From: a virus
DNA length: 64,000 nucleotides
IMG/VR virus record: IMGVR_UViG_3300044712_000688
Location: 1 to 64,000 of that record
Direction: 5' to 3' (one strand)
Shown piece by piece: positions 6,754-63,385 of the stretch. The translations under genes and the position numbers were made by a program. Position 1 is the stretch's first letter. Each line of letters begins with the position of its first letter. A model generated the notes under the pieces. The model had not been told where the DNA came from. It was given only the letters and a program-made list of their open reading frames with translations, and ran no database searches.

Positions 6754-8840
6754 ATGCAATGATCAATCTGTGGGATGCTGATGGTAAATTACAGCTCCAC
6801 AAGGACAAAGAAGCTGCTCGCGCTTACTTCCTAGACCATGTAAATCAGAACACCGTCTTCTTCCACAGCTTGGAAGAGAAGCTGGGCTATTTGGTAGATA
6901 ACGACTACTACGAAAAAGAAGTTTTAGAGCAGTACGACCCAGAGTTCATCAAAGAGACTTTCAAGTACGCTTACTCGTTTAAGTACCGCTTTGAGGCCTT
7001 CATGGGTGCCTACAAGTTTTTCAGCTCATATGCCCTCAAGACTTTTGATGGTGAGCGCTACCTAGAGCGCTTTGAGGACCGCGTTGTGATGAACGCGCTT
7101 ACACTTGCTCGTGGAGACCGTGAGATGGCCATGAAGCTCGTAGAGGAGATCATTACTGGCCGTTTCCAGCCTGCTACCCCGACATTCTTGAACGCTGGTA
7201 AGAAGCAGCGCGGTGAGTTTGTCTCCTGCTTCCTACTTCGTATCGAAGACAACATGGAGTCAATCTCTCGCGGTATCAACTCGGCTCTTCAGCTCTCAAA
7301 GCGTGGTGGCGGTGTAGCCCTAAACCTCAGCAACTTGCGCGAGGCTGGTGCCCCTATCAAGAAGATCGAGGGCCAGTCATCGGGTGTTATTCCTGTGATG
7401 AAGCTTCTTGAAGACTCATTCTCGTACGCAAATCAGTTGGGCGCTCGCCAGGGTGCTGGTGCGGTCTACCTGAACGCTCACCACCCAGACATCATGAAGT
7501 TCCTAGACACCAAGCGTGAGAACGCCGATGAGAAGATTCGTATCAAGACTCTGTCTATCGGTGTGGTTATTCCAGATGTGACCCTTGAGCTTGCAAAGAA
7601 TGGCGATGACATGTATCTGTTTTCGCCATACGATGTTGAGCGCGTTTACGGCGTTCCATTCGGAGACATCTCGGTAACCGAGAAGTACCAGGAGATGGTT
7701 GACGATGCTCGCATCAAGAAGACCAAGATCAAGGCACGTGTTCTATTTGAGCGCATCGCTGAGCTTCAGTTCGAGTCGGGCTACCCATACATCATGTACG
7801 AGGACACCGTAAACAACGCCAACCCAATCGCTGGCCGCATCAACATGTCTAACCTCTGCTCTGAGATCCTTCAGGTAAACACACCTTCTACCTATAAGGC
7901 TGATCTTGGCTACAACATTATTGGTAGTGACATCAGCTGTAACCTAGGCTCGCTAAACATTGCCAAGGTTATGGATGGCGGTAAGTTTGCTCAGACCATC
8001 GAAACTTCTGTGCGAGCCCTTACTGCTGTATCGGACCTAAGCTACATTGACTCGGTACCTTCTATTGCTGAAGGTAACAAGCGTGCTCACGCTATTGGTC
8101 TTGGCCAGATGAATCTGCACGGTTACTTAGGACGCGAGAAGATCCACTATGGTTCAGAAGAAGGTTTGGATTTTACAAACATCTACTTCTACACCGTGCT
8201 GTTCCACGCTCTAAAGGCTTCTAACACGATTGCCAAGGAACGTAACGAAGTGTTCCACGGATTCTATGAGTCGAAGTATGCAACTGGTGAGTTCTTTGAT
8301 AAGTATCTAACTCAGGAGTGGAAGCCTACTACTGATAAGGTTGCAAAGATTTTTGCAGACGCTGGTATTGAGATCCCTACTCAGGATGACTGGAAGAAGC
8401 TTAAGAAGTCTGTACAGACTTACGGTATCTATAACCAGAACCTGCAGGCTGTTCCACCAACTGGTTCGATCTCGTACATCAACAACTCAACCTCGTCAAT
8501 TCACCCAATTGCATCGAAGATTGAAACTCGTAAGGAAGGAAAGCTTGGTCGCGTTTACTACCCAGCTCCGTTCCTTGCTGACGATAATCTTGAGTACTTT
8601 GAAGATGCTTACGAGATCGGCCCAGAAAAGATTATTGATACCTACGCTGCTGCAACCCAGCACGTAGACCAGGGACTATCGCTCACCTTGTTCTTCAAAG
8701 ACACCGCAACCACTCGCGATGTTAACCGTGCGCAGATTTATGCATGGAAGAAGGGCATCAAGACTATTTACTACATCCGTATTCGTCAGCTTGCACTAGA
8801 CGGAACTGATGTGGAACAATGTGTTAGCTGCATGCTATAA
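6723..8840 (+). CDS. nrdE: Ribonucleotide reductase class Ib alpha subunit
   Basis: 705 aa; [15 protein letters not shown]-terminal CxxC. Confidence 0.97.
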
Positions 8841-10969: not shown

Positions 10970-11041
10970 TCCTCTCTAGCTCAATGGCAGAGCAACGAGC
11001 TGTTAACTCGTCGGTTCGTGGTTCGAATCCACGGAGGGGAG
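10970..11041 (+). tRNA. tRNA-Asn(GTT)
   Basis: Cloverleaf; acceptor TCCTCTC/GAGGGGA; anticodon loop CTGTTAA; GGTTCGAATCC T arm. Confidence 0.93.
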
Positions 11042-11067
11042 CTATAATTGAATATAACTAAATACAA

Positions 11068-11404
11068 GGGCCTGACTGGTTTCGACAGTGGGACTGAAGT
11101 CGGTGAAGCAAGCCGAGATAGCGGAGTCTCGTAAAAACCGCTAACAAAAATAAATGCTGAATCACGTTCTGCATTCGCTCTAGCTGCTTAGTAGTAGTTA
11201 GAACCCCTAGCAAAGCACTAGTCCTAAGTGGGCAGCTAGGCTTTAAATAAATAGGACAACCAGCACCAAGGCGGTTACGGGCCTTTAAATCGTAGTGGCT
11301 AGACGGTCTGGCAGGTCAAACGTCTAGTGATATGAAAACTGCCTAAGCTTGTAGAAGAACGATGGAACTTTCATTGGACGCGGGTTCAATTCCCGCCAGG
11401 TCCA
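11068..11404 (+). ncRNA. ssrA: tmRNA; tag peptide (A)ESRSAFALAA at 11156-11191
   Basis: GGGCCTG...GGTTTCGAC 5' end; GGGTTCAATTCCC-GCCAGGTCCA 3' end with G3:U70; tag ending ALAA-stop. Confidence 0.93.
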
Positions 11405-11406
11405 CT

Positions 11407-25721: not shown

Positions 25722-25795
25722 GGTCCTGTGGCGCAGTTGGTTAGCGCGTCTCCCTGTCACGGAGAAGGTCGCCAGTTCAAGTCTGGTCAGGATCG
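25722..25795 (+). tRNA. tRNA-Asp(GTC)
   Basis: Acceptor GGTCCTG/CAGGATC; loop CTGTCAC. Confidence 0.93.
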
Positions 25796-25799
25796 CGAT

Positions 25800-25874
25800 G
25801 GCCCCATAGTTTATCGGTTAGAACACCGCCCTTTCACGGCGGCAGGGCGAGTTCAATTCTCGCTGGGGTCACCA
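25800..25874 (+). tRNA. tRNA-Glu(TTC)
   Basis: GGCCCCA/TGGGGTC-A-CCA; loop CTTTCAC. Confidence 0.93.
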
Positions 25875-25875
25875 A

Positions 25876-25950
<75 letters not shown>

Positions 25951-26024
25951 CGAGACTTAGCTCAGCTGGTTAGAGCCCCGAACTCATAATTCGGTCGTCG
26001 TGGGTTCAAGTCCCACAGTCTCGA
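25951..26024 (+). tRNA. tRNA with CAT anticodon (elongator Met or Ile2; not initiator)
   Basis: CGAGACT/AGTCTCG with paired 1:72; loop CTCATAA; lacks the initiator GGG/CCC stem. Confidence 0.88.
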
Positions 26025-26041
26025 CGATGTAGACTATACCT

Positions 26042-26665
26042 ATGGATGGTTTTAGTCTCGTACATAACTTTATTTCTGAGGAAGAGAACAACCAGTTGGT
26101 TGAGTTCTTGGATGAAATATCGGGCTACTCACCTCAGGAGCCTTCACACAGACATGCCCTAGGCTATCCAGGGTTTAGAATTGCATCTAAAATTTGCATG
26201 GATAATCCTGCTCTTCCCTTAACGGGAGATCCTAAAAAAGATTCTGCAATCATGCTAATAACTGAGATCTATGACAGAGTCAAATATTTCTTGCAGGATG
26301 TATATAAAAAAGAGCTGCTACTAATCCAAGCCAGCTATACAGAAATCGGTGTTGGACCTGGGATGGGACTTCATTCAGATAACTACTGGCTTAACGGAGA
26401 GCTTAGAGATGACGACATTTCAATTGTCATGGAGCATTCAGCGGTGCTCTATTTGAACTCTCATGAGGATGAGTTCACTGGCGGAGGTCTATACTTCCCG
26501 TTGCAAGATTACAGGTACTTACCTCAAAAAAGCGACCTAGCATATTTCATCGGAGACTTGGATCACATTCACATTGTTGAACCAGTTGAAAGTGGAAAGA
26601 GAAAGAGTCTCTCTATTTTTTACGGAAATAAAGAAACTGTTTTATATCACTGCAACAACACTTAA
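26042..26665 (+). CDS. 2OG-Fe(II) oxygenase
   Basis: HSD, SAVLYLN, FTGGGLYF, distal H and R. Confidence 0.85.
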   Translation: MDGFSLVHNFISEEENNQLVEFLDEISGYSPQEPSHRHALGYPGFRIASKICMDNPALPLTGDPKKDSAIMLITEIYDRVKYFLQDVYKKELLLIQASYTEIGVGPGMGLHSDNYWLNGELRDDDISIVMEHSAVLYLNSHEDEFTGGGLYFPLQDYRYLPQKSDLAYFIGDLDHIHIVEPVESGKRKSLSIFYGNKETVLYHCNNT

Positions 26666-26684
26666 ACTTATGTAGTGTAGTGCA

Positions 26685-26757
26685 CCCCGTGTACCCCAAT
26701 GGCAGAGGGACCCGACTTAAAATCGGCTCAGTATCGGTTCGAGTCCGATGGCGGGGA
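26685..26757 (+). tRNA. tRNA-Leu(TAA), short variable loop
   Basis: D loop CAATGGCAGA; anticodon loop CTTAAAA; T arm ATCGG-TTCGAGT-CCGAT; one acceptor mismatch. Confidence 0.8.
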
Positions 26758-27372
26758 CTAAGGAAGCATGTCGTAGAAAAACACAAGAAGGTTTACGCGC
26801 GACCCCTTTGTAATCTCGTTGACTCCGTGAGATACGTAGTGGCCGGGAAACAAAACTAAACTTCCCTTTTTAGGCTTAATTACTACGCCTTGGTCATCAA
26901 ATAAAAGCTCTCCACCTTCATAGTCGTCATTTAGCAAGATGCTACAAACGTGAGATCTTTTCTTGCCGTCAAACTCTCCGTTTGGATTAGCATCCTCGTC
27001 TCGGTGAGACGCAAGCACCGCGCCCTTATCCATGACGTTCCCGAAGATTCTGCTGAACACAAATTCGCCATACATTTCATATGTGTTTTCGTAGTAATCT
27101 CGTACGGCTTCAACCAGATCAATTAGCTTCTTGTCTGGATCCTGGTGGAGAGGGTAGTGTCCAGCTGCTAACAACTCGCTATCAAAAAAGCCCATCCCAC
27201 GAAAGTGTGGCTTAGGGTCTTTTTGAGAATTCTGAAGTACTATCTGCGCAAAATAGTCGCAAGTTTCAGGTGATAGATAGTCTTCAATTACGTGAAATGA
27301 GCGTTCGCTAGTCAACCTAGTTCCTTTTGTTAGATAGTCCAATTGTACCTTAAATTGTGTTTGTCTTGACAA
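26758..27372 (-). CDS. 2OG-Fe(II) oxygenase
   Basis: HRD, LNDDYEGGEL, KPKKGSLVLFP, HGV, R. Confidence 0.87.
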   Translation of the reverse strand: MSRQTQFKVQLDYLTKGTRLTSERSFHVIEDYLSPETCDYFAQIVLQNSQKDPKPHFRGMGFFDSELLAAGHYPLHQDPDKKLIDLVEAVRDYYENTYEMYGEFVFSRIFGNVMDKGAVLASHRDEDANPNGEFDGKKRSHVCSILLNDDYEGGELLFDDQGVVIKPKKGSLVLFPGHYVSHGVNEITKGSRVNLLVFFYDMLP

Positions 27373-40510: not shown

Positions 40511-40720
40511 CAGGGTGGTTAGATACCCCCAAAGATTTGTTAATAAAAGAGGGAAAAGGCAGCCGTCTCCCTCTCCACGCGCAAAATTTTCGTCCGACTT
40601 CGTCCGAAGATAAATCAACATTAGTGGCGTCGCGTAAAATTAATACAGCGGCGGCTCGTTTACAAGTCCTCTCCCCAGTTAAGCGGGCCGTCGCCCTAAC
40701 TTCGAACGAAAGTTCATGAG

Positions 40721-41662
40721 ATGTTTGATGACGAGATAGACAGCAAAAACTTAGCACCCGAATACATGATCGACGACCCGATCGACATGCGCGTTGACCT
40801 CAGCCAATACGGCATCGAGGAAGTGGACAAGGGCGTCTGCCAAGATACATTTGAGAACCGTGCTATTATTCGGCGAGCGCGTCTGATCTGGGACAGCGTT
40901 TATTCTATGAACGGAGTTCCAACGGGACTCATCCGCGTTCGTTCGAAGGAATCAATCGCCGAGAAGCGTCTACTATCTTTAGCCGAAAAGAAACCGATCC
41001 TTGCTGAACCGGACAACAAAAACTCCGACTTCATCACAGGCCTGGACCTCTTAGCGGAAACGGCGAGCGACTACTTGGTTCCTCCGTGGGTAGTTAATGC
41101 CACCCGTATGTACCTCAAGGAGCAAGAAGCCGGGGGACCTATGTCCCCGAAACGGAAACCGCTTGCCATGCCAGCTCGTTGCCGTCACATCAAGGATGAC
41201 GGTATACGTTGTATGCTTTGGTCTTCAGGACGTCCAAACGATGACGGCCTGTGCAGAGTACACCTCAGAAGCATCCAACATAAAACGACGGATGACATCG
41301 AACGAGCTCGTGCGAAGTTGATGCAGGCTGCACCGTATGCTGTAGACAAACTCGAAGAACTCATGGAGTATGCTGAGAGCGAGCCGGTAAGACTCAAAGC
41401 TGCAACGGAGATCCTAGATCGCGCTGGTGTAAGAGGCGGCGTGGAGATAGACACGAACGTCAACATTGATGTACGGCCAGCAGCTAGTGTCATTGCCGAG
41501 AGGTTGGACCGCCTAGCTCAAGGAGCGATCGCAACTGCTGCGAAGTTAGCGGATGCAGGTATTCACGTGTCTCCGGATAAAGAGATCATTGATGCTGATA
41601 TAGTCACGGATGAGAAAACGGAAGAGCGGCCTGCGCTTACTTCGGAGGAAGAAAAGAAATAA
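40721..41662 (+). CDS. Phage protein; C-terminal half resembles small-terminase-like proteins
   Basis: CRH...C...C..H finger then VRLKAATEILDRAG; functional call tentative. Confidence 0.45.
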   Translation: MFDDEIDSKNLAPEYMIDDPIDMRVDLSQYGIEEVDKGVCQDTFENRAIIRRARLIWDSVYSMNGVPTGLIRVRSKESIAEKRLLSLAEKKPILAEPDNKNSDFITGLDLLAETASDYLVPPWVVNATRMYLKEQEAGGPMSPKRKPLAMPARCRHIKDDGIRCMLWSSGRPNDDGLCRVHLRSIQHKTTDDIERARAKLMQAAPYAVDKLEELMEYAESEPVRLKAATEILDRAGVRGGVEIDTNVNIDVRPAASVIAERLDRLAQGAIATAAKLADAGIHVSPDKEIIDADIVTDEKTEERPALTSEEEKK

Positions 41663-50049: not shown

Positions 50050-50158
50050 GAAGTCCATTAGCGGATTGAGCAAACTCGTTTCCCCCCTTTCCAAAATCGC
50101 TCTCCGCTAACGGATTAGGAATTCCTATCAGTTCCCCCACTGGTAGGGATTTCGCTTT
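50050..50158 (+). ncRNA. Candidate double-hairpin RNA with C6 and C5 loops
   Basis: TCCATTAGCGGA/TCCGCTAACGGA stem around TTTCCCCCCTTT; ATTCCTATCAGT/ACTGGTAGGGAT stem around CCCCC. Confidence 0.55.
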
Positions 50159-52510: not shown

Positions 52511-52748
52511 TCGTTTCCCTAAAAAGCAAGAACCCTCGCCTTCGGGCGGGGGTTCTTGTTTGGCGTGAGCGCAGCTGAACCGGATCAATGGATTACGCGC
52601 TCGCGGTTTGGGTGATCCAGGCTGGGGGCTACCGTCGGAACTTCCAACGAAAAAAATTTCTCGTATGAAGTTGCGTATTATCGGCGTATCCTGCTAAACT
52701 CTAAGGGTGGACGAAAAAGTTCACTTGGAAACTATCAAAGGGAAACAA

Positions 52749-55723: not shown

Positions 55724-55972
55724 GTCGAGAAATCGCAAACCCCTCAGTCGAGAGACTGGGGGGTTTTGCTTTATCCCGAAATCTGGTCAATCCGCCGGAC
55801 CGCCTGGACTCTCGCCGAGATCGCTGTTCGTTCGTTCGTTCGAAGTTATGAAGCAGCTTAGTGGCAGCTCGTGGCAGCTCGTGAGCGTTACAAATTCGTT
55901 ATCAAAAAATACTTGACACGCTTTGGGTTGGGTAGTATATTTGAAGTTAGAAAGGGAGATAGGGGGTGTGAG

Positions 55973-56839: not shown

Positions 56840-57031
56840 AAGTGAGCAAACCGGAACCCCGCCCAAGTGGCGGGGTTTTGTTTTGATCGGATCTAGTGCC
56901 GAGAGCTCGCCCCGGGTTCGCAGCTGATCGATCTGAAGACACGAAAGAAAATGTTCGTTGGAAGTTGCGTGTTGTTTCGAAATGCGGTATCTTTTTATTA
57001 GGCGAAAACGCCTAAACGAAAGGGAAACGAA

Positions 57032-57349: not shown

Positions 57350-57396
57350 CAACTATCTCTGTAACAACTACCAACCAAAAACGAAAGGGAAACAAA

Positions 57397-57934: not shown

Positions 57935-58144
57935 ATGAGTTTCGGAGAGCCGAAGTATCCAGATGTTCAGGTTCAGTTGGTCGGGGAAGACGGAAACGCT
58001 TTCGCGATTATGGGGCGTGTGGCTAGCGCACTAAAGAGCGCAGGTGTGTCTCAGTCTGAGATTGACGAATACTATGCCGAGAGCACAAGTGGCGATTATG
58101 ACCACTTGCTACGCACCGCAGTCAAATGGGTGGCGGTGGCATAA
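57935..58144 (+). CDS. Conserved small phage protein
   Basis: VQLVGEDGNAFAIMGRV...SGDYDHLL. Confidence 0.75.
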   Translation: MSFGEPKYPDVQVQLVGEDGNAFAIMGRVASALKSAGVSQSEIDEYYAESTSGDYDHLLRTAVKWVAVA

Positions 58145-58491
58145 TGGGAGACCGCTCGCTGATTCAGATTGAGAGCAAGTCTTTCAAGACCCCGATTACC
58201 CTTTATGGACACTGGTCGGGTGGAGATAACCTAATCGCTGTTCGCAATGTGCTGACTCGCACTGACCGAATCGGAGACCCAAATTACCTAACCGCGCAGC
58301 TGTTCTATGAGTTCGCGGTGGCTTTGGGTGGCTACGCCGGAGAGTTGTCTTTCGGGATTGACGCCTATGGTGCTAGCGAGAGCGATGTCTGGGTTGATAA
58401 CGACACAGTGGTTGTGAACGCCGACACTGGAGAGTATTCAGTCGGTGGAGAATTGTTTACCGAATTTGCGAAAGTCGCAGATAGCGTGTAA
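58144..58491 (+). CDS. MGDRS...LYGHW family protein (related to 54668-55192)
   Basis: Shared N-terminal pattern. Confidence 0.65.
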   Translation: MGDRSLIQIESKSFKTPITLYGHWSGGDNLIAVRNVLTRTDRIGDPNYLTAQLFYEFAVALGGYAGELSFGIDAYGASESDVWVDNDTVVVNADTGEYSVGGELFTEFAKVADSV

Positions 58492-58494
58492 ACT
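58466..58494 (+). promoter_or_regulatory. Promoter TTGCGA-17-TAAACT in the end of the upstream gene
   Basis: Matches the array promoter pattern; positioned to drive the 58501-58612 RNA. Confidence 0.65.
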
Positions 58495-58500
58495 GATAGA

Positions 58501-58612
58501 AGTCACTTGGGCTTGAGATTACTCGCTCGGGTGATTATGCGGAAGGAGTTATCCCCCTTTCACCTTCCGCAAAGAGAGCGGTAGCAATTCCCCCCAATTG
58601 CTACCGTTTTTC
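58501..58612 (+). ncRNA. Candidate sRNA: three hairpins, two with C5 loops (6C-RNA-like)
   Basis: TCACTTGGG/CTCGGGTGA; GCGGAAGG/CCTTCCGC around TATCCCCCTTTC; CGGTAGCAATT-CCCCC-AATTGCTACCG-T tract. Confidence 0.65.
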
Positions 58613-58617
58613 TTTTG

Positions 58618-58705
58618 TCTGGATTAGGGCCGCGCTCGCGGTGATCGATCAGAGCTGCACCCTGGCCGGACCGGAGCTTGCCGGGATCGAAACGCGCTCG
58701 CGGAA
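58618..58705. repeat. Polylinker-like linker
   Basis: 3 GATC, 2 AGCT, 3 CCGG, 2 GGCC and GAATTC in about 90 bp. Confidence 0.85.
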
Positions 58706-58774
58706 TTCGTTTGAAGTTGCTTGCTTTTCTTGTTGTTGTGGAGTAACCTGTTGGTATCCAAAGAAAGGGAAACA

Positions 58775-58915
58775 ATGGAAACCAAAGAGATTACCGAGTG
58801 CTACAAATGCCAAACCGAGATTGAAGCATTCGTTGGGCAAGTTCATCCGTTGTGTGATGAGTGTCAAGAAAGTTTTGACGATTGGTTCGCACAACAATTG
58901 CGGATGTTCAAGTAA
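58775..58915 (+). CDS. 46-aa zinc-ribbon-like protein
   Basis: CYKC...CDEC; consensus RBS. Confidence 0.6.
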   Translation: METKEITECYKCQTEIEAFVGQVHPLCDECQESFDDWFAQQLRMFK

Positions 58916-58992
58916 TCGCACGACACGACTAACCTAGTTGCGTGTTTGAGCAAACTAGGCTAATCTGGAATTACCTAGAAAGGGGAAACGAA

Positions 58993-59342: not shown

Positions 59343-59752
59343 TCGTGATTGGATTTCACCGTTTTATGGAAAAGTTTTGGCGAGTGATTAGCGCGATTGC
59401 CTTTCGCACTTTTCACACTACGCAGACGCTCGCGCATAAGTCTTATGTAAAGGGTGGTCGCCACGGTCGCCGTCGTCAGGAACGCAAACCCCTAACCGCA
59501 ATCTGGAAGTGGTGGCAGAATGTCAAAGCGCAATTCTGAGTTCGCGATTATTTGGCGTGGCCTTGCTGTTGGGCTAGGGTTTGTCTTTATTATGGGGTTC
59601 GCGATCGGTTATCGTGACGGGCTTACCCCCTGGTTTTTGCTTGGCGCAGCTACTGTTTGTTGGTGGCTATCAAGAAATTGATTTGACTTTTTAGGGAAAC
59701 GCAGTAAACTGATTCTGTTAGCAAATGCTGACACTTACGAAAGGGAAACAAA

Positions 59753-60310: not shown

Positions 60311-60396
60311 AACATTCGTTGGAAGTTGCTTGACTTTTACTCGCGCAGTGTGGCAAGATTGAGTTAGCCGAAAGGCACTAAGGAAAGGGAAACAAA

Positions 60397-60825: not shown

Positions 60826-60936
60826 CGCGACACGCTCGCGACACGCAACCGCCCGATGTGGCGGTTGTTGTGTTTTTGGCAGATGTGTGGCATACTTTTG
60901 TTATCGGCAGAAAGCCGAAAAACGAAAGGGAAACAA

Positions 60937-61283: not shown

Positions 61284-61389
61284 CCGTTATCAATTTGTTA
61301 CAAAAATTATTTGGAAATTGACTTGTATTTTCGAAAAATAGAGTATGCTTATTACATAAGCCGAAAGGCAAAAACGAAAGGGAAACGAA

Positions 61390-62020: not shown

Positions 62021-62148
62021 GAGTGCTAATTTCCCGTTATCAAACTGTGATAAAAATTTTCTCGAATTGACTTGACAAAAGAAAAAATACCGCTTATGCT
62101 TATTCCATAAGCCAAACGGCTTAGATACAAAAACGAAAGGGAAACAAA

Positions 62149-62451: not shown

Positions 62452-62644
62452 AGGGAAAGCGAAAGCCCCTAGCCCGAAAGGGTTAGGGGTTTTCTTTTGC
62501 GCTCGCCAGGATTTGCCTTGGTCGATCCGCGCAACACGCTGAAGAAAAAAAGTTTTGGAATTGACTTGACAAATAAATTAGACCCTGTATGCTTATTACA
62601 TAAGCCAAAAGGGCTTGAGAAAAAAACGAAAGGGAAACAGAAAA

Positions 62645-62938: not shown

Positions 62939-63097
62939 CCCCCTAGCCGAGAAGCCCCTAGCCGATTGTGGCTAGGGGTTTTTCTTTACCGCGACACGCT
63001 CGAAAAAAAAGTTTGCGGAAACCCTTGACAATTGGTTTAGGGTTGGTAAATTAGAAGTGTTAGGTGATACCGCCTAGCAAAACGAAAGGGAAATGAA

Positions 63098-63331
63098 ATG
63101 AACATTCAGAAGTTTGAGAAGGCACAAGACAGACTAACCGCGGTTGTATTCGTTGCGGGTATGGTTGCTTGGTTCTTTGGCGCGGATTACTACGGCTTGG
63201 CTATGGCTAATGACCTAAGCGGATTCGGTGAAGTTGCTTACCCGATTATTCTTGCCGTTAGCGCGGTTGTGGCTATTACCGCGCTCGCGGTGAAAGCCTA
63301 CGGATACCGCCTAGCAAAGACTTACCGCTAA
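63098..63331 (+). CDS. Two-TM membrane protein (similar layout to 62645)
   Basis: TTGACA promoter near 63024, RBS and terminator. Confidence 0.65.
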   Translation: MNIQKFEKAQDRLTAVVFVAGMVAWFFGADYYGLAMANDLSGFGEVAYPIILAVSAVVAITALAVKAYGYRLAKTYR

Positions 63332-63347
63332 CCCCCTAAGCGGTAAA

Positions 63348-63385
63348 CCGAAAGCCCCCTAGCCCCCTAGGGGGTTTTCTTTTGC
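63348..63385 (+). terminator. CCCCTAG/CTAGGGG-type terminator (family also near 61730, 62458, 62950)
   Basis: GAAAGCCCCCTAG-CCCC-CTAGGGGGTTTTCTTTT. Confidence 0.75.

Follow-up and report, generated by a model that had tools for sequence, protein, structure and literature searches.

Here we describe a discrete, conserved and structured RNA element in a 64,000-nucleotide (nt) stretch of viral DNA (hereafter the window), which comprises the first 64 kb of the 136,298-bp IMG/VR record IMGVR_UViG_3300044712_000688. The element, at 58501-58616, shows strong covariation and carries conserved single-stranded C-rich loops, and we predict that it gives rise to a non-coding transcript of about 115 nt belonging to a "twin C-loop" family, which is found in uncultured phages whose hosts are most likely freshwater and soil actinobacteria. 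We consider it close to certain that this is a real, conserved RNA element, and probable that the RNA acts by pairing its loops with G-rich sites of the Shine-Dalgarno (SD) type. That it chiefly targets the phage's own GAAAGGG leaders, and represses them, is a closer call that falls slightly short of an even chance.

Three hairpins are predicted on the plus strand of 58501-58616, the last being an intrinsic terminator, with a minimum free energy of -52.9 kcal/mol compared with -28.8 +/- 3.6 kcal/mol for shuffled sequences (z = -6.65; 0 of 200 shuffles as stable), which confirms the three hairpins and U tract proposed in a preliminary description of this DNA. Hairpin 1 (58501-58536), the 5' hairpin, has a loop that is not C-rich and is found in the window's subclade only. 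Hairpin 2 (58538-58571) consists of a 9-bp stem and a 16-nt loop, AGUUAUCCCCCUUUCA (58547-58562), that carries the candidate anti-ribosome-binding-site (anti-RBS) sequence CCCCCUUUC. Hairpin 3 (58572-58616), the terminator, has an 11-bp core stem (58579-58606), a CCCCCC loop (58590-58595) and a U tract (58607-58616); counted over 58574-58611 its stem has 16 pairs and is followed by TTTTTCTTTT, the arrangement expected of an intrinsic terminator. The loop of hairpin 2 (loop 2) thus reads five C then UUUC, and that of hairpin 3 (loop 3) six C. Both loops are C-rich and lie where the preliminary description had placed them, but the second has six C flanked by paired AAUU/AAUU, and not five. No conserved open reading frame (ORF) lies in the element, as had been claimed: the single 25-codon TTG ORF (58507-58584) is without an RBS and its frame is broken by an indel in the relative L006, on which grounds a coding reading was rejected. 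A reading of the loop as an RBS on the minus strand was also discarded, there being no start codon after it.

Homologous elements were found directly 3' of the same gene in IMG/VR relatives of the upstream 115-amino-acid (aa) gene, and this position is maintained in many lineages. A covariance model (R1) built from five relatives, in which 12 of 31 pairs show compensatory change, recovered hairpins 2 and 3 of the window with E = 4.5e-10. With nine distinct sequences, compensatory change was seen in 22 of 31 pairs, and 96.8% of cells were paired, compared with 34-52% when the partners were slid. Metagenome contigs were then scanned with an alignment of the 115-aa protein and subsequently with a second model (R2), which gave 45 hits. 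These comprise 39 distinct sequences of related uncultured phages, most of them lying immediately 3' of the 115-aa gene, and in this set compensatory change is seen at 30 of 31 pairs and 94.2% of cells are paired (36-48% when slid). While such counts are flattered by alignments that were fitted to the model, the stems are still plainly differing sequences, all of which pair. The covariance model from related phages that the preliminary description had proposed as a check came out in favor of a conserved, structured RNA.

The conserved core of the family is hairpins 2 and 3 (58538-58614). Helix 1 of both models, corresponding to hairpin 2, has compensatory changes in 11 of 11 pairs over the 39 sequences, with the loop consensus UUAUCCCCCUUU, and helix 3, the terminator, in 14 of 14 pairs with 97.6% of cells paired. 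The kind of loop stays constant while the stems turn over, the first loop being UUAUCCCCCUUU(C) or a close variant (the UUAUCCCCCUUUC type) and the terminator loop C5-7 or UUAUCCCCUUUC. Hairpin 1 retains its pairing through sequence changes in L005, L006 and L119, and is absent in other subclades. The element also stands behind unrelated genes, namely in L055, in L013 and at a sibling copy near 50 kb of the window. A scan of IMG/VR with a two-loop DNA pattern returned 67 stretches, among which only L055, L039 and relatives already known were real. Searching with R2 yielded nothing in Actinomycetia phage DSL-LC01, Microbacterium phage Pumpernickel or Arthrobacter phage Atuin, and a weak match in A3Wally (E = 0.047) was rejected since it consists of two ordinary hairpins without C-rich loops.

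The element had been described as a promoter-driven small RNA; the putative promoter is kept in the window's subclade and absent from most others. A -35-like TTGCGA (58466-58471, plus strand) lies within the 3' end of the upstream ORF and is separated by a 17-nt spacer from a -10-like TAAACT (58489-58494, plus strand), the TAA of which is the stop codon of that ORF (58126/58144-58491). This promoter, present as first described, matches 8 of 12 consensus positions and is missing from the list returned by a generic promoter scan. Nevertheless, all four type-I members (window, L005, L006 and L119) retain TTGCGn-17-TA(A/G)ACT despite differences in the coding sequence that separates the two hexamers. 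A TTGCGT -35 of the same class occurs at mRNA promoters at 52671, 54169, 56965 and 58938, within an array of small early genes that extends from 45 to 63 kb of the window, and the -10 TAAACTGAT is shared with the mRNA promoter at 59683-59710. Transcription would start about 7 nt past the -10, near 58501, at the foot of hairpin 1, which fits a protected primary 5' end. In other subclades no promoter match was found, and the first hairpin begins 0-16 nt past the stop codon or overlaps it; there the element is consequently a 3' untranslated region (3'UTR), processed or not. Because no terminator separates the upstream ORF from the element in the window, a read-through mRNA would carry it as a 3'UTR here as well. 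The window phage therefore probably makes two RNA forms, one being the 3' end of the transcript of the 57935-58491 operon and the other a short primary transcript initiated at a weak promoter within the operon's last codons, both of which would share one 3' end at the intrinsic terminator.

What connects the element with the early gene array is loop 2, whose CCCUUUC is the exact complement of GAAAGGG, as the preliminary description had pointed out. GAAAGGG is the top SD-like 7-mer found 4-15 nt 5' of start codons (15 sites, all on the plus strand and all in the 45-63 kb array); it occurs 18 times on the plus strand, and 15-17 of these copies are placed 4-11 nt before a start codon. Of these copies, 12 are AAGGGAA sites that precede an ORF of at least 35 codons. 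The longer 11-mer GAAAGGGAAAC is present nine times, always on the plus strand, between 57018 and 62628, and 13 times if up to one mismatch is allowed (1.3 expected). The earlier count of at least 12 array genes for this RBS is thereby corrected to nine copies of the exact 11-mer, with the GAAAGGG core at 15-17 start sites.

Candidate target sites consisting of GAAAGGGAAAC, all on the plus strand, lie at 57018-57028 (gene 57032), 57383-57393 (gene 57397), 58763-58773 (gene 58775), 59739-59749 (gene 59753), 60383-60393 (gene 60397), 60924-60934, 61376-61386, 62135-62145 (gene 62149; probability of being unpaired 0.71) and 62628-62638 (gene 62645; 0.78), together with the variant GAAAGGGAAAT at 63084-63094 (gene 63098; 0.88). 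The RBS GAAAGGGGAAAC at 58978-58989 (gene 58993) has an 8-nt match to loop 2 and a duplex energy of -15.1 kcal/mol. At 55950-55966, behind the strongest promoter of the array, GAAAGGG is followed by GGGGG, with modelled duplexes of -15.7 and -11.6 kcal/mol; this region could bind loops 2 and 3 together. Loop 3 otherwise matches G-runs only, of which the GGGGG beside this RBS is an example. The RBS motif was mostly unpaired in five of seven leaders modelled.

The 3' end of actinobacterial 16S rRNA is CCUCCUUUCU, and loop 2 reads like this tail with U replaced by C. Nearest-neighbor duplex energies with the array RBS are -11.8 kcal/mol for loop 2 and -8.9 kcal/mol for the 16S tail, whereas the order is reversed on a canonical AAGGAG site, with -5.0 kcal/mol for loop 2 and -9.2 kcal/mol for the tail. 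In these models the array SD looks tuned, being weaker for the ribosome and stronger for the RNA.

Relatives of the phage allowed loop type to be set against RBS type. Both traits could be scored in 29 of the 55 metagenome loci that were at least 4 kb long: CCCUUUC is the only loop type at 15 GAAAGGG loci and UCCUUUC the only one at 12 GAAAGGA loci, and two loci, from one lineage (L196/L197), are discordant. The whole contigs G000 and G002 combine a GAAAGGG RBS with the CCCCCUUUC loop. G004 and G005 have GAAAGGA at 39 and 32 sites, respectively, and a 13-bp hairpin with a UUCCUUUCC loop, with no excess of CCCYUUUC in either; one G005 loop holds both words. G003 pairs an AAGGGAG RBS with CUCCCUU loops, and in G001, whose RBS is GAAAGGA/AAAGGAG, a CUCCUUUCU loop caps a 17-bp terminator. 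In L219 the RBS is AAAGGAG and the loop is UUUCCUCCUUUC, which contains CCUCCUUUC exactly; the element concerned (L219:10637-10718, minus strand), in which the first loop is the 16S anti-SD tail itself, was matched on the strand opposite to the marker gene. Single intrinsic terminators in relatives likewise have 13-20-nt loops complementary to their own RBS word (UUCCUUUCC or CUCCUUUCU), as seen in G005 at 6.25-6.31 kb and 8185-8224, in G004 at 78213-78175 (minus strand) and in G001 at 87.3 kb (minus strand), and it seems from these sequences that anti-RBS loops in terminators are a wider habit of this phage group.

A shuffle test of each locus's own top RBS word against its own loops gave 13 matches in 28, where 9.1 +/- 1.5 were expected, and 57 of 5000 shuffles reached 13 (about 0.011, uncorrected for relatedness). 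On a poorly resolved tree of the short marker protein, at least four RBS changes and three loop changes were counted. We take the co-variation of loop and RBS as suggestive support, and not as proof, of a functional link.

From these observations we propose the following mode of action. Two hairpins would expose single-stranded C-rich loops resembling the 16S rRNA 3' tail with U changed to C, and loop 2 (CCCCCUUUC) would pair with GAAAGGG(G), the private SD word of about 15 small early genes at 45-63 kb, while loop 3 (C6) would add affinity for G-runs. GAAAGGG can pair with 16S rRNA only via a G.U wobble and with the loop via G-C, so the RNA should out-compete the 30S subunit on array leaders while sparing the canonical AAGGAG/GGAGG sites of later genes. 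As the stable RNA accumulates, translation of the early set would be repressed, possibly with mRNA decay, giving a delayed brake. Transcription of the RNA, pairing in vivo, repression rather than activation, and the timing are what we infer. A more general form of this proposal is that, in a widespread group of uncultured actinobacteriophages, each lineage uses a private SD "address" (GAAAGGG here; elsewhere GAAAGGA, AAGGGAG or AAAGGAG) together with a small RNA or 3'UTR whose loops are a mutated 16S tail tuned to it, so that one RNA out-competes the ribosome on a whole early regulon, address and loop co-evolve, and the system forms an RNA counterpart of RegB of phage T4. We offer this general form tentatively, and think it somewhat doubtful.

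Several observations weigh against self-directed repression of the array. One or two loops facing about 15 mRNAs with strong promoters make an unfavorable stoichiometry, and any anti-SD-like loop complements any SD-like word to some degree. The C6 loop of the terminator complements the RBS no further than GGG, and an unconstrained whole-genome duplex scan with the loop sequences does not rank RBS sites first, the seed being just 7-8 nt; the case consequently rests on position and conservation and not on energy alone. Among relatives, G001 (AAAGGAG/GAAAGGA) has a tandem element with C9-11UUUC loops that do not fit its own RBS, L217 and L221 use GAAAGGA but have UUCCAUUUC and CCCCCCAUUC loops, and L196/L197 are mixed. 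The association of loop and RBS is furthermore phylogenetically clustered, and it reduces to one supported (four unsupported) independent contrasts, never opposite in direction, which are too few for a sign test to reach significance. The original claim that the loops complement the shared early RBS is supported for loop 2, where the types largely track each other across relatives, but not for the C6 terminator loop beyond GGG or for the mismatched G001, L217, L221 and L196.

An unlikely alternative is that the RNA is a host-directed mimic of 6C, a small RNA of actinobacteria, whose C-runs pair with G-rich leaders of host mRNAs and so reprogram or arrest the host, the match to the phage RBS being secondary. 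Loops in the family are indeed mainly C5-7, several members have no UUUC in either loop (L196 has UCCCCC twice; L207, L208, L211 and L182 have C5-6 terminator loops), and the G001 loops do not fit their own RBS. The known 6C RNA binds G-rich 5'UTRs by two C-rich loops without a chaperone and stops growth when overexpressed (PMC6486639), and plasmids carry extra copies of 6C (PMC9569102). However, a G-run target in the host leaves unexplained both the UUUC extension and the switch between C and U that tracks the phage's own RBS type, and at E <= 10 the Rfam 6C model does not recognize the element. We give about the same low probability to the possibility that the element is a terminator or 3'-end stabilizer that does not act by base-pairing, its pyrimidine loops being kept as a site for a host or phage protein, or as a decoy of the 16S tail for some factor or nuclease. 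Hairpin 3 has every feature of an intrinsic terminator, large loops of this kind also cap single terminators in relatives (L007 at 228-317, G005 at 6.3 and 8.2 kb, G001 at 87.3 kb), and the loops resemble the 16S tail, that of L219 containing CCUCCUUUC exactly. Ordinary terminators of the array, on the other hand, have 4-6-nt loops of the GNRA or UUCG type, so conserved loops of 12-16 nt are not needed for termination, and a decoy of the 16S tail would be expected to keep CCUCC and not to change with the RBS word of the phage.

It is less probable still that the element acts only in cis, folding back as a 3'UTR on the RBS of its own operon mRNA and limiting translation and stability without any trans-acting RNA. 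The position of the first hairpin at or just past the stop codon in most subclades, with no promoter match, would suit such a role, as would the GAAAGGG RBS of the first gene of the L007 operon, and a precedent exists in the icaR 3'UTR, in which a UCCCCUG motif pairs with the SD of its own mRNA (PMC3868564). Yet the window operon's own RBS is GAAAG-UA-GGG, a poorer match than the trans sites; within the window's subclade an internal promoter is conserved and a 5' hairpin has been added, features that a free RNA would be expected to have; and unrelated genes precede the element in L055, in L013 and at the 50-kb sibling. Pairing of the loops with the phage's own SD-type leaders is the reading we prefer for the window.

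The 50-kb sibling (50052-50153, plus strand) is a second twin C-loop element, in which a large-loop hairpin holding CCCCCCUUUCC is followed by a 15-bp hairpin with the loop UCCCCC (z = -3.9). It lies between a 606-aa VWA-like gene and the next ORF, has a weak U tract, and is the second-best match of R2 in the genome (E = 0.024). All differences of G002 in this region improve or keep pairing. BLAST of the 58.5-kb against the 50-kb element gave no significant match; their kinship is based on the match to the covariance model and on the 26 nt 5' of the sibling, 20 of which, with the stop codon among them, are shared with the promoter region of the 58.5-kb element. A duplication that took in the upstream edge of the unit is the probable origin of the pair.

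Two further structures of similar appearance were observed in the window. At 40648-40694 (plus strand), an intergenic 15-bp hairpin 5' of the gene at 40721 has a 17-nt loop holding CCUCUCCCC, and its stem carries a double compensatory change in G002 (CUCG/CGGG to CUAG/CUAG); it could represent either a further anti-SD-like RNA or a structured leader. At 63322-63384 (plus strand), at the stop codon of gene 63098-63322, a third tandem arrangement consists of a hairpin with the loop AACCCCCUA and then a terminator that is made up of repeated CCCCCUAG units and has a C-rich loop; the G002 copy is too nearly identical to show covariation.

The virus record has direct terminal repeats and a G+C content of 47%. 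Its portal and capsid genes are of actinophage type, the portal protein sharing 74% identity with its counterpart in the lake-water Actinomycetia phage DSL-LC01 and 60-65% with the portals of large Microbacterium phages, and near-identical DNA is present in freshwater metagenomes and in one rhizosphere metagenome. Among the sequencing runs listed as containing this DNA, none is recorded as RNA. The window carries a transfer-messenger RNA (tmRNA) gene and six tRNA genes: the tmRNA gene (10970-11405), with the tag AESRSAFALAA, adjoins tRNA-Asn, and a cluster of five further tRNA genes lies at 25722-26758. A tag of the FALAA type is consistent with an actinobacterial host. The likeness of the portal, the occurrence in metagenomes and the tRNA/tmRNA features of the genome together identify the source, at the level of sequence, as an uncultured actinobacteriophage. 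A search of an annotated phage collection gave neither a DNA nor a protein match for the region or the upstream gene.

Genes of the 45-63 kb array are small and without known function, and mostly have their own sigma-70-like promoter, short leader and terminator. Their leaders are modular, with a 5' hairpin, an A-rich single strand and then the RBS. Between 52.6 and 63.1 kb (for example at 62072-62148) each cassette runs from a TTGACA- or TTGCGT-class promoter through an AGCC-GAAA-GGCU-type 5' hairpin and an A-rich spacer to AACGAAAGGGAAAC, a start codon and usually a terminator, and this design of the early genes is also kept in the relatives L006, L007, L010 and L011. Downstream of the element's terminator, a G+C-rich spacer (58620-58720) contains GATCGATC (58643-58650), two copies of CGCGCUCGCGG (about 58630-58641 and 58693-58703) and then TTCGTTTGAAGTTGC, which recurs immediately 5' of the -35 in several array promoters (56950, 60330).

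With regard to known RNAs, no Rfam family reaches its cut-off on the element. The "6C-like" label given to it in the preliminary description is apt only in part. A search with the 6C covariance model (RF01066, cut-off 47 bits) gave no match at E <= 10 in 58300-58800, and over the whole 136-kb genome three candidates were scored and none reported; membership of 6C was rejected on this basis. The "six C" type of loop is nonetheless found, C-runs being present in both loops and conserved in the 39 relatives. Like 6C/B11, the element is a short RNA of the actinobacterial world with C-rich hairpin loops, and 6C's loops have been shown to pair with G-rich segments, often RBSs, of several mRNAs. The C-rich loops of 6C bind leaders that include the AGGGGGG RBS of panD (Mai et al. 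2019, PMC6486639), and mycobacterial 6C represses dnaB, panD and others. The element differs in lying in a virus record and not at a conserved chromosomal locus of high-GC Gram-positive bacteria, in having a UUUC extension of loop 2 that mirrors the extended SD word, and in that its candidate targets are the phage's own genes. By analogy, it looks as though the element works like 6C without being a member of that family.

The best Rfam matches, all below threshold, were ar14 (RF02344; 22.3 bits against a cut-off of 58.8, E = 0.04) and BjrC80 (RF02354; 23.4 bits against 80, E = 0.02). These two alphaproteobacterial RNAs, ar14 also being known as "cuckoo", have CCUCCUCCC loops, and RNAIII and RsaE/RoxS of Staphylococcus aureus have UCCC motifs; all are small RNAs whose C-rich loops mask SD sites, and like the element, they have several hairpins with anti-SD-like pyrimidine loops. 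They belong to other phyla, however, and are chromosomal, stress-regulated and directed at host regulons, and the element falls far below the family cut-offs. The 3'UTR of icaR mRNA in S. aureus (PMC3868564) resembles the element in placing an anti-SD C-rich motif beside a terminator, but acts on its own mRNA, whereas the best matches of the element are about 15 other leaders.

Small RNAs derived from 3'UTRs arise by two routes, from an internal promoter (the DapZ/MicL type) or by processing (the CpxQ type). The presence of a promoter within the upstream ORF in one subclade, and of none in the others, parallels these two routes. The timing of phage gene expression is usually put down to promoters, to sigma and anti-sigma factors and to a small number of proteins, RegB and RegA among them. 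The RegB endoribonuclease and RegA repressor of T4 are like the element in being phage devices aimed at an SD word common to early mRNAs, and RegB cuts GGAG in early leaders, ending their translation a few minutes after infection (PMC3014915). Both are proteins, whereas the effector proposed here is an RNA and the address a private SD variant. Highly expressed non-coding RNAs of unknown function have been reported from the actinophages WC1, D29 and Kampy (PMC10986025), and our literature search turned up no account of a phage RNA that fits the phage's own early RBS.

With 39 distinct sequences to date and clear covariation, this large family is ready for an Rfam-style description. If the proposed mechanism is true, a phage RNA that copies the anti-SD tail of the ribosome, with one base altered to prefer a private RBS word, would be a simple and portable switch for a whole class of genes. 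It would also explain why the array uses a wobble-pairing SD (GAAAGGG) instead of a perfect one, and why its leaders are of a common modular type, and it would carry the principle of C-rich loops, known from chromosomal 6C, over to viruses.

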